Shown in pieces: positions 15,897 through 21,126 of a stretch of 64,000 nucleotides of DNA; the stretch's first letter is position 1, and each line of letters starts with the position of its first letter. The translations under genes were made by a program, and so were the position numbers. The notes under the pieces are model-generated. The model saw only the letters and a list, made by a program, of their open reading frames with translations, had not been told where the DNA came from and searched no databases. The stretch is from a bacterium (GTDB taxonomy: Bacteria; Bacillota_I; Bacilli_A; RF39; UBA660): contig JAUNMG010000001.1 in the NCBI GenBank assembly GCA_030531905.1, forward strand, positions 56,569 to 120,568. Direction: 5' to 3'.

Positions 15897-17033
15897 ATGG
15901 AAAGTGAAATTTATAATACTTTAACTATAGTTTTAGTAACATTTGTATTTTCAGCATTAATCATGCCCTTAATGAAAAAAGTTGCAGTGCATGTAGGTGC
16001 TATGGATATGCCAAGAAAAGAAGAAGGAAACAGACATATCCATAAGAAACCAATTCCAAAATTAGGAGCAGTAGGAATTTATTTAAGTTTTCTTTTTGGG
16101 TATATGTTATTTGGAAAAGAAAGTATTCAAATGAATTCAATTTTAATTGGTAGTTTTATTATGATATTAACAGGTATTGTTGATGATTTAAAATCAATTA
16201 GAGCTTACCAAAAACTTATTTGTCACATAGTGGCTGCATCTATCATTGTTTTTTATGGAAAGATTCTATTAAGTAATATAACAGCCTTTGGTTTTGCAAT
16301 TGATTTAGGGATATTTTCTTATCCAATAACTATATTATTCATAGTTGCATGTTGTAATATTATTAATTTAATAGATGGATTAGATGGTTTAAGTGGTGGT
16401 ATATGTAGTATCTTTTTCCTAACAATTGGTATTATAGGTTTTTATCAAGGAAGAGGTGGAAGCCTAGTAATGATTCTAACATTTATTATGCTGGGTGCAA
16501 CCTTAGGTTTCTTATTACATAACTTTTATCCAGCAAAGATTTTTGCAGGAGATTGTGCTACATTTATGGGATTTATTATCTCAATAATTACCCTACTAGA
16601 ATTTAAAGGTCCAGCTTTAACATCATTCTTTGTACCAATTTTGTTGTTAGGTATTCCTATTATAGATACTGCTTTCGCAATAATAAGAAGAGCCTTAAAA
16701 GGAAAGCCAATATTCTCTGCTGATAAAGAACATTTACATCATCAATTACTAGGAATGAACTTTTCCCAAAGAACAACAGTATTAATAATTTATGGTATGA
16801 ACATTTTGTTTGCTATGGCTTCAATATTTTATACACTAAAAGATCCTGTTACTGGTACTGTTATCTATATAATTTTATTTATTATATTTTTATGGTTTAT
16901 ACTACATACAAGTATTATTTCAGATAAAAGCCCAAAACTAACGAAGAAAATAGAACAAAAACTTAAGTTACCATCAAGTAAAAATAAAAAGAAAAATAAA
17001 CAGAAAACAAAGAAAAAAACAACTTCTAAATAG
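15897..17033 (+). CDS. tagO: polyprenyl-phosphate N-acetylhexosamine-1-phosphate transferase (MraY/WecA/TagO family, glycosyltransferase family 4)
   Basis: About 10 TM helices. NxxNxxDGxDGL and DDxxS-like motifs. Lysine-rich C-terminal tail. Confidence 0.8.
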   Translation: MESEIYNTLTIVLVTFVFSALIMPLMKKVAVHVGAMDMPRKEEGNRHIHKKPIPKLGAVGIYLSFLFGYMLFGKESIQMNSILIGSFIMILTGIVDDLKSIRAYQKLICHIVAASIIVFYGKILLSNITAFGFAIDLGIFSYPITILFIVACCNIINLIDGLDGLSGGICSIFFLTIGIIGFYQGRGGSLVMILTFIMLGATLGFLLHNFYPAKIFAGDCATFMGFIISIITLLEFKGPALTSFFVPILLLGIPIIDTAFAIIRRALKGKPIFSADKEHLHHQLLGMNFSQRTTVLIIYGMNILFAMASIFYTLKDPVTGTVIYIILFIIFLWFILHTSIISDKSPKLTKKIEQKLKLPSSKNKKKNKQKTKKKTTSK

Positions 17034-17047
17034 AAGTTGCTTTTTTG
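17020..17047 (+). terminator. rho-independent terminator of tagO-like gene
   Basis: CAACTTCTA...TAGAAGTTG perfect 9-bp stem followed by a T-run. Confidence 0.65.
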
Positions 17048-17099
17048 TTAATAACTCGTAATTATTGGAAAAATATGGTAAAATTATATTGGTGATAAT

Positions 17100-17831
17100 A
17101 TGATTAATTTTATAATATGTGAGGATGAGAAACCACTAAGAGAAGAAACAAAGAAAATTATAGTCAGTTATATGATGAATCATGATATTGATTACAAAAT
17201 TTATGAGTTTGATAGCTATGATAAAAAATTTGACCAAATTATGAAAAAAGATATAGGTTTTAAAATATATTTATTAGATATTATCACAAAAAATGGAACT
17301 GGTATTGATGCAGCTAGAATAATAAGAGAAAAATATGATGATTGGGTTTCAGTTATTATAATGATAACTTCTCATAATGAATATAAGTACGAAGCATTAT
17401 CCAGTAGATTATTCTTGCTTGATTTTGTTAACAAACTTAATAATTGTAATAAGAAATTAAGAGATGATTTAAATGTTGCAATGAAACACTATGACACTAG
17501 ATATAAAATGTTAAGTTATGAATATAATCATACTTACTACAGAATTGAGTATAGACAAATAATTTATATTGAAAAAGAACAAGACAGTAAAAGATGTATT
17601 ATTAGAACTAAAGATGGAAAACAATTAATACCAGGTAGTTTAAATGAAGTAGAGAAAAAATTAGATAATAGATTCTTTAAAACTCATAAAAGTTTGATTG
17701 TTAATTTAGATGAGATAGCACTATACGAAATAAAAGAAAATAAGATAACTTTTAAGAACGGAGAAGTAACTTATCTAATATCAAGAAACAAGAAGAAGGA
17801 GTTGATTGAGAATGTCTACAATTATAATTAA
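17100..17831 (+). CDS. LytTR-family response regulator (AgrA-like)
   Basis: N-terminal receiver domain (IICEDE...D) and C-terminal LytTR DNA-binding domain. Overlaps the downstream kinase gene by 26 nt. Confidence 0.8.
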   Translation: MINFIICEDEKPLREETKKIIVSYMMNHDIDYKIYEFDSYDKKFDQIMKKDIGFKIYLLDIITKNGTGIDAARIIREKYDDWVSVIIMITSHNEYKYEALSSRLFLLDFVNKLNNCNKKLRDDLNVAMKHYDTRYKMLSYEYNHTYYRIEYRQIIYIEKEQDSKRCIIRTKDGKQLIPGSLNEVEKKLDNRFFKTHKSLIVNLDEIALYEIKENKITFKNGEVTYLISRNKKKELIENVYNYN

Positions 17832-19107
17832 ATTCATTTGTTCAGTATTGATGGCATTTAGTGGCTTGATAGTAGTAAAAAATATAAGTGGTAGTAAGGA
17901 GAAAATTATAAGTATAAAAAATATATTATTGATATGTATTTTAATATTTGTTCCAGTTATTAACTATGGAGCAAAATATACATATATATCAACACTAACA
18001 GTATTTATAGTCTCAATATTTGTTTATAAATATATTTTGAAAATAAGTTTCTCAAAATCAACAATTTGTTGTTCTATTTTATACTTGAGCTTGTTTATTT
18101 TAGAATTTATTTCAAGCCAAATATTTGTCTATTTAATGTCATTAGATGAGGTTAGAAATATTTTAGTAGTTAATATTTTGTTCAATCTTGTATATAGTAT
18201 TTTCTTATTACTTATTTTTAATATAAAATTCGTTTATAAAAATATAAGAAAGTTTATATCAAAGATAGAACATAGAAAAGGATATAATTATATTGTATTT
18301 TTCGTATTATTAATAATGGCAATGAGTATTATTCTATATACAGTCGCTATAAATTATAAAGTTGACAATATGTTTTATGTTTCCTTTTTATTACCTTTAC
18401 TATTTTTTAGTTTAATTATAATATTGGTTAATGAGGAGTATAACTATAATAAATTATACACAGAATATGATAATTTATTTACATATGTAAAAGTGTTTGA
18501 AGATTGGATTGAAAATGAACAGTTAATCAGACATGAGTACAAAAATCAACTTGCTGTTTTGAGATGCATGACTAAAGAGAAAAAAGTAAAATATAAGATA
18601 GATAGTATTATATCTGAAACTATTAATATTGATGATAATATGGTTAACCAGTTGAAAAATCTTCCAAATGGAGGATTCAAAGGCTTGTTATATTATAAGA
18701 TTATCGTTGCTAAAAATAATAATATAAAATTGGAAATTAATATAGGAAATGAGTATAATGAGGTATTGAATAAATTAAGCGATGACAAGTTAAAAGTATT
18801 ATCAAATATAATTGGTATATATCTTGATAACGCTATAGAGGCATCAAAAGAAACAAAAAGAAAAATTGTTTCAATAGAAATTTATGAATATGATAGTACA
18901 GCAAATATAATAATAAGTAATACATTTAATACTAAGTTAGACATCTCTAAGAGAAATGAAAAAGGATACAGTACAAAAGGAACAGGTAGAGGAAATGGAT
19001 TATATTTTGCTAATAAATTACTTACTAAAAATTCTTGGATTTGTGAACAACAAGATATAATTGATGGTTTCTATATAGAAAGAATAAGAATTAAAAATAG
19101 TTTATAA
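17806..19107 (+). CDS. HPK10-type sensor histidine kinase (AgrC-like)
   Basis: About 6 N-terminal TM helices. H-box RHEYKNQL resembles the AgrC RxKHDYxN box. C-terminal GHKL ATPase (GTGRGNGL). Confidence 0.8.
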   Translation: MRMSTIIIKFICSVLMAFSGLIVVKNISGSKEKIISIKNILLICILIFVPVINYGAKYTYISTLTVFIVSIFVYKYILKISFSKSTICCSILYLSLFILEFISSQIFVYLMSLDEVRNILVVNILFNLVYSIFLLLIFNIKFVYKNIRKFISKIEHRKGYNYIVFFVLLIMAMSIILYTVAINYKVDNMFYVSFLLPLLFFSLIIILVNEEYNYNKLYTEYDNLFTYVKVFEDWIENEQLIRHEYKNQLAVLRCMTKEKKVKYKIDSIISETINIDDNMVNQLKNLPNGGFKGLLYYKIIVAKNNNIKLEINIGNEYNEVLNKLSDDKLKVLSNIIGIYLDNAIEASKETKRKIVSIEIYEYDSTANIIISNTFNTKLDISKRNEKGYSTKGTGRGNGLYFANKLLTKNSWICEQQDIIDGFYIERIRIKNSL

Positions 19108-19261
19108 TGAAGTGATCAAGTAAAAAATGGATAGTTTATAAATCAATTTCTTAAATGAGTTCGTTGTAGGTGCTTGATGAATAAATTTAATTCTAATTTG
19201 TATGTGGTATAATCAATTTTGAATTTTTTATATCTTTTAATTTATTTTTATTCTAATATAA

Positions 19262-19300
19262 AAAGTAGACTAGAAATTTTTTTCTTTTGTCTACTTTATT
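19262..19300. terminator. bidirectional rho-independent terminator between convergent HK and agrD
   Basis: GTAGAC...GTCTAC stem with T-runs on both strands. Confidence 0.6.
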
Positions 19301-19325
19301 ATATTACTTGATATAGAACTATTTT

Positions 19326-19448
19326 TTAATCATTAAAAGAATTTAAAGTTTTTGGTTCATCAAATAGCATCCATATACATCCCATGCTAGCTGCTCCTGT
19401 AGCAAGTAAAGCAATAGCACTAATGAATGCTGCAACTCTTTTCTTCAT
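19326..19448 (-). CDS. agrD: AgrD-like autoinducing-peptide precursor
   Basis: 40-aa ORF with GGAGA RBS, immediately downstream of agrB on the same strand. Amphipathic leader, a single Cys (MGCIWMLF) followed by DEPK, matching the AgrD C-terminal recognition-motif pattern. Not in the supplied ORF track. Confidence 0.65.
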   Translation of the reverse strand: MKKRVAAFISAIALLATGAASMGCIWMLFDEPKTLNSFND

Positions 19449-19500
19449 AATAATCTCCTTTCTTAATTTCCTATATTATAAACATCAAATAAATTGATAT

Positions 19501-20091
19501 TTATTCATGCTTGTAGTTATTAAAAGGTTGATTTAATAACATATAAATTAAGGGATTAACCATTAGTGATTCTATAATCACGCTTAGTATAAAGATAGTT
19601 GAAAGTTCATGATTGTTTATAACCAATGATAAAATTATATATATAATGGCAACACTTACAGTTGCTATTTTTCTTATTAATCTTTTCTTTTTATTTTTTA
19701 GAGGTCTTTTAACAGTATCAGCAGGTGCAAATATAAGCAAATCTATTAAACAGATACAACCTATAATTAAGATGCTAAATTTTGAAATGTTAATATTTAA
19801 CATAATGTATGGTAAAACTATAAAACATATAGTAGAAGATATTAAACATTGCCAACTTTTTTTAGCGTGTATTCCAAATCCGAAATATCTGATAATATTA
19901 AAAAATAGCAAGGTTAGAATGACTTCTTTTAAAATATTTAAAACTATTGCCAAGAAAAGTATTATGACTAATTTTGTTATTGTTAAATATATACCTTCTA
20001 ATCCATATTTTAATTTTTCTAAATCTTCTCCTTCATATGTTTCATACTTAGATAAGAAATTTACCATTTTATTAATTACTACTGTTTTCAA
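19501..20091 (-). CDS. agrB: accessory gene regulator B (AgrD-processing membrane peptidase)
   Basis: Strong similarity to staphylococcal AgrB in the catalytic region (GxHA...SxxxC, FAPAxTxKxP...RLIRK). About 6 TM helices. 196 aa. Confidence 0.85.
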   Translation of the reverse strand: MKTVVINKMVNFLSKYETYEGEDLEKLKYGLEGIYLTITKLVIILFLAIVLNILKEVILTLLFFNIIRYFGFGIHAKKSWQCLISSTICFIVLPYIMLNINISKFSILIIGCICLIDLLIFAPADTVKRPLKNKKKRLIRKIATVSVAIIYIILSLVINNHELSTIFILSVIIESLMVNPLIYMLLNQPFNNYKHE

Positions 20092-20330
20092 AGTTTACCT
20101 CCTATCTTGACACTAGATTATCACTTAATAAGTAGATATTTTTATTGTTTTTTTAAAAGGTATAATAATTTCTTTTTTTTTGCACAAATAGTAGAAATTT
20201 GTCGAAAAACTCACACAAAAATCCCTAAAAATTACATTTAAAAGAAAAACGAGCCATATTTTAGCTAGGTTGTTAAACTAGTATCACTTGGCCAAGAGTC
20301 AAGAATAGTATTTGGGAAAAGAGGTGCAAA

Positions 20331-20549
20331 ATGATAGGAAGAGTTAAGTGGTTCAATAATGAAAAAGGTTATGGATTTATTGAATATAAGGAAAATGAAG
20401 ATATTTTTGTTCACTATTCAGCAATTGAAAATGATGGATATAAGACTTTATCAGAAGGACAATACGTTGAATTTAATTTAGTAGAAACAAGTAAAGGATA
20501 TCAAGCATTAAATGTTAAACTTGTTAAGGAACCAGCTATGTCAAAATAG
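20331..20549 (+). CDS. cold-shock protein (CspA family)
   Basis: RNP1/RNP2 motifs ([20 protein letters not shown]). Confidence 0.9.
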
Positions 20550-20598: not shown

Positions 20599-21126
20599 AT
20601 GGAAATTATTATCCGTGGTGATAAAATTAAAGTAACGGATGCGATGAAAGACTATATAGAAGAAAAAATCGGAAAACTTAGTAAGTATATTGAAGATGAT
20701 AGTTCTGTTCGTGCAACTGTTGTTGTTAAGGTTAAAAACCACTCTCAAATATTAGAGGTAACTATACCACTAAAATCATTTATTTTAAGATCTGAAGAAG
20801 TACAAGATGATTTTTATGCAGCAGTTGATAAAGCTGTTGATAAACTAGAAAGACAAATCAGAAAAAATAAAACTAGACTTATGTCTAAGCAAGTTAAAGG
20901 GTTTGATTTTTCTTTTGAAAGTTTTGAACCACTTGAAGAAGATGAAACTTCAGATATAATTAAAAGAAAAAAAGTAGAAGTAAAACCTATGAATGAAGAA
21001 GAAGCAATTATTCAAATGGAACTTTTAAACCATCAATTTTATATGTACAAAGATAGTGAAACAAATAAAATTGCAGTTGTTTATAAAAGAAAAGATTCTG
21101 GGTATGGAATAATTGAATCTGAATAA
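20599..21126 (+). CDS. hpf: ribosome hibernation-promoting factor (long HPF/YvyD)
   Basis: MEIIIRGDKIKVTDAMKDYIEEK N-terminal domain and C-terminal dimerisation domain. AGGAGG RBS. The ORF-track start at 20512 is too far upstream. Confidence 0.88.
   Translation: MEIIIRGDKIKVTDAMKDYIEEKIGKLSKYIEDDSSVRATVVVKVKNHSQILEVTIPLKSFILRSEEVQDDFYAAVDKAVDKLERQIRKNKTRLMSKQVKGFDFSFESFEPLEEDETSDIIKRKKVEVKPMNEEEAIIQMELLNHQFYMYKDSETNKIAVVYKRKDSGYGIIESE

Follow-up and report, generated by a model that had tools for sequence, protein, structure and literature searches.

To our knowledge, work on agr-type signaling has been confined almost entirely to pathogens and a handful of clostridia. The canonical agrBDCA arrangement is a single-strand operon in the order B-D-C-A, which is the order in the Clostridium taeniosporum, Enterococcus gilvus, and Listeria monocytogenes records. 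Separate operons for agrBD and agrCA also appear in reviews, as do reversed gene listings; the macrocycle of Clostridium acetobutylicum is given as [CVLVTL], six residues without a tail, with synthetic R6T0 used as the autoinducing peptide (AIP) (PMC10301443, PMC12312760). Here we describe an agr-type locus in a 64,000-nucleotide stretch (the window; G+C content of ~26%) of contig JAUNMG010000001.1, from an uncultured gut member of the Bacilli. It encodes a LytTR response regulator, a histidine kinase, an AgrB homolog, and a 40-amino-acid precursor that is very probably AgrD, arranged as two converging operons. We consider it highly likely that these genes constitute a functional cyclic-peptide quorum-sensing system that works broadly as proposed below. 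This is a known kind of agr system, with a layout already present in sequenced clostridia and with an AgrD of the six-residue-spacing subfamily. What takes it beyond the routine is the population-level diversity of pherotypes in an uncultured commensal, the exchangeable cassette that the layout creates, and a possible link to the neighboring genes csp and hpf.

All four open reading frames (ORFs) that an earlier note, made from this stretch of DNA alone, had assigned to an agr system were found where it had placed them, and the 40-amino-acid translation was exactly as quoted there. The regulator matched Pfam LytTR (2.6e-17), its best NCBIfam model was AgrA (2.3e-20), and its sole PDB matches were to the LytTR domain of Staphylococcus aureus AgrA (2e-8). 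Its REC part scored 27.1 bits, below the cut-off of 30.2, and by motif reading retains the acidic pocket and D60; the protein thus has the REC-plus-LytTR composition of agr regulators. The kinase, delimited from a TTG start (an alternative ATG lies at 17812), matched Pfam HATPase_c_5 (PF14501; 1.1e-08) and, over its full length, the NCBIfam AgrC model (best model, 1.8e-21), and S. aureus AgrC provided its sole PDB matches (1e-13). Seven hydrophobic segments in residues 1 to 208 form a seven-transmembrane (7-TM) sensor domain, and an H-box (RHEYKNQL, residues 242 to 249, with H243), an N-box (LDNAIEA, 340 to 346), and a G-box (GTGRGNGL, 392 to 399) follow. A polytopic sensor, an H-box, and a GHKL domain of HATPase_c_5 type are the marks of an HPK10-type kinase. 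The AgrA-like and AgrC-like identities proposed earlier for this pair were thus borne out, and its cotranscription is plausible because the two genes overlap by 26 nt.

AgrB, previously called a clear homolog, deserved the description: the 196-residue protein matched PF04647 at 6e-36 (profile positions 2 to 183 of 185), and its best NCBIfam model was AgrB (1e-36). R68, G73, H75, and C82 were invariant in an alignment with annotated AgrBs of Listeria, Clostridium, Enterococcus, and Alkaliphilus, and the catalytic residues H75 and C82 have the His-x6-Cys spacing. The NCBIfam matches of the regulator, the kinase, and AgrB all fell below the equivalog cut-offs, and the three are therefore distant relatives of the staphylococcal proteins.

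The gene orientations agree with the convergence claimed earlier, agrCA on the plus strand facing agrBD on the minus strand, and the single-strand B-D-C-A order does not occur in the window. The earlier description of this layout as atypical is right with respect to the textbook operon and wrong in a wider sense, as the layout recurs in a clade of metagenome-assembled genomes (MAGs) and on three RefSeq plasmids. The order of regulator and kinase, opposite-strand agrD and agrB, and csp and hpf beyond agrB was kept in ~29 related loci with AgrB identities down to 35%, and csp-hpf was present in every related locus whose record extends that far. These loci come from MAGs of uncultured Bacilli from the guts of humans (including Hadza), sheep, deer, rabbits, and mice. 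Three of the four proteins of the window locus had exact matches in a gut MAG, and the kinase, as delimited from its TTG start, was absent from the collection searched. Because the flanking genes (mreB, a glycosyltransferase-4 [GT4] gene, csp, hpf, and secA) are housekeeping genes, we regard the locus as part of the chromosomal core. In this abundant, uncultured, small-genome gut lineage of humans, ruminants, rabbits, and mice, agr is a core, vertically inherited locus. We found no text discussing agr convergence as such in the literature searched. As a precedent for the convergent layout, Clostridioides difficile agr2 (“agrACDB”) proved unsupported; the papers give gene order only, some of them as one transcript.

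The probable AgrD precursor and its predicted signal

The 40-amino-acid ORF had been described as unannotated, but NCBI carries it as the hypothetical protein MDO5002683.1. It begins 52 nt beyond agrB, is preceded by a strong ribosome-binding site (AAAGGAGA), and was called by gene callers on 4 other contigs. We found 63 homologous cluster representatives of 39 to 46 residues. In the alignment of the resulting 64 sequences, the leader MKKRVAAFISAIALLATGAASMG was nearly invariant, C24, E31, and P32 were invariant, and the (D/E)EP motif was kept. The five residues after the cysteine were hypervariable and always hydrophobic or small, with 54 distinct cores (Cys plus five residues) among the 64 sequences. 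In a profile-profile comparison, hhalign aligned this family with known AgrDs at a probability of 78.6% (E of 1.7e-5 for one single comparison), placing Cys on Cys and DEP on EEP. The known-AgrD profile comprised six sequences annotated in RefSeq or read from fetched loci and four S. aureus sequences. Of the 28 clade loci scanned, 18 had a recognizable ORF of AgrD type behind agrB.

The ORF is therefore a small precursor adjacent to agrB, with a leader, a Cys/Ser hydrophobic core, an acidic (D/E)EP tail, and homology to AgrD. Its position, the profile-profile match, the invariant Cys and (D/E)EP, and the covariation with the kinase sensor described below support the original assignment, and we conclude from these sequence features that it is very probably a real, conserved agrD gene. 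One feature proposed for it did not stand: the leader is not amphipathic but uniformly hydrophobic and signal peptide-like, with a hydrophobic moment of 0.22 and a mean hydrophobicity of 0.68.

We propose the following mechanism. The agrBD operon would be transcribed leftward from an extended -10 promoter. AgrB, using H75 and C82, would cut the 11-residue tail off the 40-residue AgrD and link Cys24, most likely to Phe29, in a thiolactone, which makes CIWMLF a six-residue macrocycle, and a signal peptidase-type enzyme would remove the signal peptide-like leader. The 7-TM domain of the kinase, expressed from an operon that is probably constitutive, would sense the peptide, and autophosphorylation on H243 would be followed by transfer of the phosphate to D60 of the regulator. 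The DNA targets of the regulator, by analogy with relatives, would lie in the agrB-csp intergenic region.

The size of the ring is the part of this mechanism with the strongest competitor. The earlier note had predicted C-I-W-M-L(-F) with a short exocyclic tail; the core residues hold, and a six-residue ring, possibly tail-less, appears likelier. The spacing from Cys/Ser to (D/E)EP was six residues in every AgrD ORF recognized in the clade, as it was in the AgrDs annotated for C. estertheticum and C. tagluense. We take the macrocycle of S. aureus group II to end one residue before EP (CSSLF-D-EP) and the core context of the C. acetobutylicum signal to be CVLVTL-Y-EP. The Listeria rings likewise end one residue before EP, as in CFMFV-Y-EP and CVGFV-Y-EP (PMC12312760 and sequence records). 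Because the Cys-EP spacing in the window equals that of the six-residue C. acetobutylicum AIP, we predict that cyclo-CIWMLF is the more likely product.

Alternatively, the system could be the same and the ring have five residues, with AgrB cleaving after Leu28 to give cyclo-CIWML, either tail-less or with N-terminal residues such as SMG attached; the discarded tail would then start at Phe29. Among AIPs, five-membered rings predominate by a wide margin (PMC10301443, PMC12312760), and core position 4 is always L, F, I, or V, which suits ring closure. Set against this, the rule that the ring ends before (E/Q)P, as read from S. aureus group II, Listeria, and C. acetobutylicum, yields six residues, and the closest AgrB relatives with an annotated AgrD, those of C. 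estertheticum and C. tagluense, show six-residue spacing. Position 5 is also hypervariable yet always hydrophobic or small, like a ring residue and unlike a conserved tail. We therefore consider the five-residue ring unlikely, while giving it a substantial minority chance, and continue with cyclo-CIWMLF.

The residues before the cysteine (AASMG) are identical between pherotypes and so probably lie outside the specificity-bearing mature peptide, which, judging from this pattern, probably has little or no exocyclic tail. A tail-less product could, by analogy, rearrange to a lactam; a thiolactone-to-lactam rearrangement in clostridia is described in work cited in PMC11953309. Among the clade ORFs (loci L007 to L033), Ser replaces Cys in L009 and L013, and many of the peptides end in DEPECPKSL or DEPEADEELL.

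We also weighed the possibility that the ORF encodes a small secreted protein or a lipoprotein with a lipidated cysteine, the true AgrD being absent or elsewhere. In favor of this, the leader has the classical n-h-c build of a signal peptide and runs into a lipobox-like SMG-C, 2 of the 64 family members weakly match the NCBIfam “LP_plasma lipoprotein” model (0.0022), and the window peptide has no direct match to an AgrD hidden Markov model (HMM). A canonical lipobox reads L-[ASTVI]-[GAS]-C, or [LVI]-[ASTVI]-[GAS]-C in the form tested. The ORF does not contain it, since in A-S-M-G-C the residues at positions -3 (S) and -2 (M) are unfit. The ORF also follows agrB directly in every locus where it was recognized, carries an invariant (D/E)EP at AgrD spacing, and matches known AgrDs profile to profile; the Cys codon is exactly where its hypervariability sets in, and this variation follows that of the kinase sensor domain; and there is no other small ORF with Cys/Ser and EP near agrB. 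A lipoprotein is thus very improbable.

A hypervariable block of kinase gene and agrD core

For comparison within the species, we used contigs whose SecA, HPF, Csp, GT4, and MreB proteins were 98 to 100% identical to those of the window. In these contigs the regulator was 95 to 100% and AgrB 93 to 99% identical. DNA identity dropped to 13 to 86% in one block, from ~17800 to 19377, whereas the flanks were 96 to 100% identical. The edges of the block are sharp and lie at the Cys24 codon of agrD (19377) and at the regulator-kinase junction (~17800). Between alleles, the sensor domains of the kinase were 26 to 53% identical and the cytoplasmic parts 53 to 78%. The H-box, RHEYKNQLA, was essentially invariant, with one K-to-R change (L049).

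At least six alleles occur in the one species, including that of the window: CIWMLF, CLWLLA, CFWMLI, CLWFLI, CIWVFV, and CMIFFM. Thirteen cores accompany an identical leader, and the divergence of the sensor domain within the species equals that between species. Signal and receptor covary within the species, as in agr specificity groups: kinases that go with an identical AIP core had sensor domains that were 87 to 100% identical, a single core change (CIWILA/CIWLLA) went with 85% identity, and core identity correlated with sensor identity with a Spearman rho of 0.77 over pairs that are not independent. The agrD-kinase spacer is allele specific, ranging from 13 to 218 nt among alleles and usually containing a palindromic hairpin of its own. 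We rejected the idea that the 218-nt spacer of the window is a remnant of other alleles, as it matches only the same allele.

Because convergence puts the AIP-coding end of agrD beside the kinase gene, signal and receptor form one contiguous unit, bounded by conserved agrA at one end and by the conserved agrD leader and agrB at the other, and this cassette defines many mutually distinct pherotypes in one species. AgrB lies outside the variable block, and therefore one AgrB must accept many cores; presumably, it recognizes the conserved leader and the DEP tail across them. Gene orientation thus shapes which genes exchange as a unit. The unusually high allelic diversity of signal and receptor makes the locus a natural system for asking how private channels (pherotypes) originate and are maintained in the gut. 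Receptor specificity and cross-inhibition are testable without culture, since the predicted peptides are short, hydrophobic, and easily synthesized.

Several points count against our interpretation of the locus. The window peptide had no Pfam or NCBIfam AgrD match even at an E value of ≤10 (PF05931, TIGR04223), so the profile check suggested earlier failed; 11 of its 64 relatives match TIGR04223 weakly, the best at an E value of 0.0079. For so divergent a 40-residue peptide, this failure is no refutation. The hhalign E value does not come from a database search, and motif spacing is the basis for the predicted size of the ring and length of the tail. The covariation of core and kinase could partly reflect physical linkage in one recombination block. 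Finally, paired LytTR direct repeats ~21 bp apart, the mark of autoinduction, did not reach significance upstream of either agrB or the regulator gene in the window.

In one related locus (L039, 4624 to 6141), the kinase ends inside the G-box, at 397 instead of 431 residues, leaving 330 nt of former coding sequence behind it; the locus shares its AgrD allele with L038. It may be a natural agr-null variant. Such agrC variants are common in S. aureus.

If the locus as a whole were a decaying or silent remnant, the divergence of the kinase would stem from relaxed constraint and not from diversifying or balancing selection on ligand-receptor pairs. The L039 truncation and the lack of demonstrable LytTR boxes in the window would fit. 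The four ORFs, however, are intact in nearly all of ~50 loci, the H-box and the catalytic residues are retained, variation in AgrD is confined to the core, the leader and (D/E)EP being invariant, and identical cores pair with closely similar sensor domains, which makes decay a very remote explanation. Least credible of all is a bacteriocin-type three-component system (ComCDE/PlnABCD-like) with a linear peptide. In its favor, HPK10 kinases and LytTR regulators are common to agr and bacteriocin or competence systems, and neither protein here reaches its equivalog cut-off (AgrC or AgrA). Against it stand an AgrB with a strong Pfam match, a peptide lacking a double-glycine leader, a neighborhood without any peptidase C39 ABC transporter or bacteriocin or immunity genes, and AgrC and AgrA as the best matches in NCBIfam and the PDB.

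Intergenic elements and the divergent csp-hpf genes

Features of the agr locus and its surroundings (positions in the window)
Feature	Position	Strand	Basis or remarks
Terminator hairpin of the upstream glycosyltransferase-4 gene	17013-17046		Terminator scan of both strands
Candidate extended -10, TGGTAAAAT, of the regulator-kinase operon	17076-17084	+	Read from the sequence
LytTR response regulator gene (AgrA-like)	17100-17831	+	Pfam LytTR, NCBIfam AgrA, PDB matches, residue motifs
Hypervariable specificity cassette (whole kinase gene, spacer, agrD from Cys24 codon to stop)	17800-19377		Identity profile
AgrC-like HPK10-type histidine kinase gene	17806-19107	+	Pfam, NCBIfam, and PDB matches, motifs
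Second hairpin, directly after the kinase stop	19112-19182	+	dG -15, z -3.1
Bidirectional terminator-type hairpin between the converging operons	19254-19310	both	A-run before and T-run after the stem
agrD, 40-residue precursor (leader MKKRVAAFISAIALLATGAASMG, core CIWMLF, tail DEPKTLNSFND)	19326-19448	-	Position, homologs, profile alignment
agrB, polytopic membrane cysteine endopeptidase/cyclase (H75, C82)	19501-20091	-	Pfam AgrB 6e-36; invariant alignment columns
Candidate extended -10, TGATAATCT, of agrBD	20115-20123	-	Intergenic alignment
Candidate LytTR site, two imperfect direct repeats 21 bp apart, TGTAATTTTTAGG / TGTGAGTTTTTCG	20203-20236	-	
csp	20331-20549	+	Divergent from agrB; synteny
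hpf	20599-21126	+	Divergent from agrB; synteny

The bidirectional terminator that had been proposed between the operons was confirmed as a strong hairpin on both strands, with free energies of -18.0 (plus strand) and -16.8 (minus strand) kcal/mol and z scores of -6.6 and -6.2 against shuffles; a simple terminator scan missed it. The second hairpin, nearer the kinase gene, is specific to the allele of the window, as is the spacer that holds it; part of this spacer is absent in L002.

Only ~50 nt separate the GT4 terminator hairpin from the regulator gene, and the 66-nt spacer before that gene contains the upstream terminator and TGGTAAAAT. LytTR boxes would not fit into what remains, and we therefore think constitutive expression of the regulator-kinase operon probable. 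Upstream of agrB, the intergenic alignment showed a TGnTAnnnT pattern that is kept across the genus.

The search for LytTR direct repeats that had been suggested upstream of agrB and the regulator gene returned nothing above shuffles in the window. The best pair in the expected zone, listed in the table, had a z score of 0.1 in a search of 19- to 23-bp spacings. A pattern derived from this candidate was not enriched in the 64-kb window (3 matches versus 1.6 expected, only the source site being exact). These repeats do lie in a genus-conserved block and at the position where relatives show clear box pairs. In more distant relatives the pattern is clear: 14 of 29 intergenic regions had their top-scoring repeat pair 140 to 165 nt ahead of agrB, nearly all of them spaced at 21 bp (binomial probability of 1e-6 for a zone chosen post hoc). 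Five loci (L012, L015, L018, L023, and L029) have a second pair of 21-bp-spaced repeats, of reverse-complement sequence, nearer agrB. Each pair lies 17 to 29 nt upstream of a -10 element (26 to 29 nt in four of the five loci); one box pair faces agrB and the other faces csp. No agrB-proximal pair in the window resembled the reverse complement of the distal pair, the 16 of 26 matches found being at background level.

The conserved block with the candidate repeats could equally belong to the 5′ untranslated region (UTR) of csp. By eye, the csp promoter is ambiguous: it could be TATAAT at 20158 to 20163, giving a 160-nt 5′ UTR, or a weak -10 downstream of the candidate boxes. No terminator was predicted between csp and hpf. 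The terminator scan also flagged a conserved palindrome, CTTGGCCAAG, just upstream of csp (20287 to 20303, plus strand). Shared across the species and, in part, with L049, it is probably a component of the csp 5′ UTR.

An Rfam scan of 19000 to 20400 at an E value of ≤1 returned no family except a chance-level match, and RNAIII was not found; the divergent neighbor here is the protein-coding csp-hpf pair. Because the box pairs of the five relatives mirror the P2 and P3 promoters of S. aureus, with csp-hpf in the position of RNAIII, this analogy suggests that csp, which encodes a cold-shock RNA chaperone, and the ribosome hibernation factor gene are direct outputs in those relatives. For the window itself, the same analogy makes such an output possible. 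We speculate, with considerable doubt, that csp-hpf is a divergent, directly regulated output bringing about density-triggered ribosome hibernation and that the convergent layout created an exchangeable kinase-plus-AIP cassette that maintains dozens of private pherotypes per species. If so, cell density would switch on ribosome hibernation. A literature search for a link of agr to hpf or csp found nothing relevant.

Two observations concern the wider neighborhood. A SpoIIID gene adjoins mreB in a related species of the same genus (L040/L041, 8957 to 9123), and the lineage may therefore sporulate, although related MAGs suggest a small genome. The only Rfam family at threshold within the 64-kb window was the L31-Firmicutes ribosomal protein leader RF03156 (13053 to 13084, plus strand), with 33.4 bits against a gathering score of 33.3.

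Comparison with known agr systems

The identical convergent order is annotated in RefSeq on three plasmids, C. estertheticum pCEST-001C, C. tagluense pCM022-183, and one of Alkaliphilus sp. B6464, which were the best AgrB matches in the plasmid collection (35 to 37% identity). Their AgrDs share the six-residue spacing (CIAYAL-E-EP, SVILIF-E-EP), and PGAP names the peptide “cyclic lactone autoinducer peptide” in both Clostridium records. The agrD-kinase gap on these plasmids is only 6 to 18 nt. They differ from the window in being plasmid-borne, in their neighbors (radical SAM/SPASM genes in C. estertheticum), and in their longer AgrD leaders of staphylococcal or clostridial type. Literature searches found no experimental study of the three loci. 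On pCEST-001C (L051, 357 to 3492), the convergent agr genes are divergent from a small ORF and radical SAM/SPASM genes resembling a cluster for a ribosomally synthesized and posttranslationally modified peptide, and this presumed effector thus sits where csp-hpf sits in the window, divergent from agr. A further plasmid of the species, pCEST-001B (L057, 2347 to 6929), carries an agr variant in which an opposite-strand LytTR regulator gene is followed by a small ORF, agrB, and the kinase gene, and then by six tandem lantibiotic genes of gallidermin/nisin type.

C. acetobutylicum shares with the window separate transcription units for agrBD and agrCA, a six-residue tail-less macrocycle, and the C-x5-x-EP spacing (PMC10301443, PMC12312760). 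Its neighboring effector is the LanM-like CA_C0082 and not csp-hpf, and no pherotype polymorphism has been described for it. In the literature searched, we found no statement on the relative orientation of its agrBD and agrCA operons. L. monocytogenes agrBDCA resembles the window locus in being a chromosomal system of nonstaphylococcal Bacilli without RNAIII and in its x-EPK AgrD tail, and it differs in its canonical single-strand order and its five-residue ring, A[CFMFV] (PMC12312760).

With agrBDCA of S. aureus (groups I to IV), the locus shares the four components, the His-x6-Cys of AgrB, an AgrD with a leader, a Cys core, and an acidic DE(x)P tail, a polytopic HPK10 kinase, and a LytTR regulator, as well as within-species hypervariability in which signal and receptor covary. 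There, the genes form one operon, whereas the window has two converging operons; the S. aureus leader is amphipathic and that of the window signal peptide-like; and the Cys-EP spacing is five residues in S. aureus and six in the window. In S. aureus the variable block consists of AgrD together with the C-terminal part of AgrB and, from AgrC, just the sensor half, in contrast to that of the window, which takes in the whole kinase and the AgrD core and excludes AgrB. S. aureus has four allelic groups; here we found at least six pherotypes in one species and 54 cores across several related gut species.

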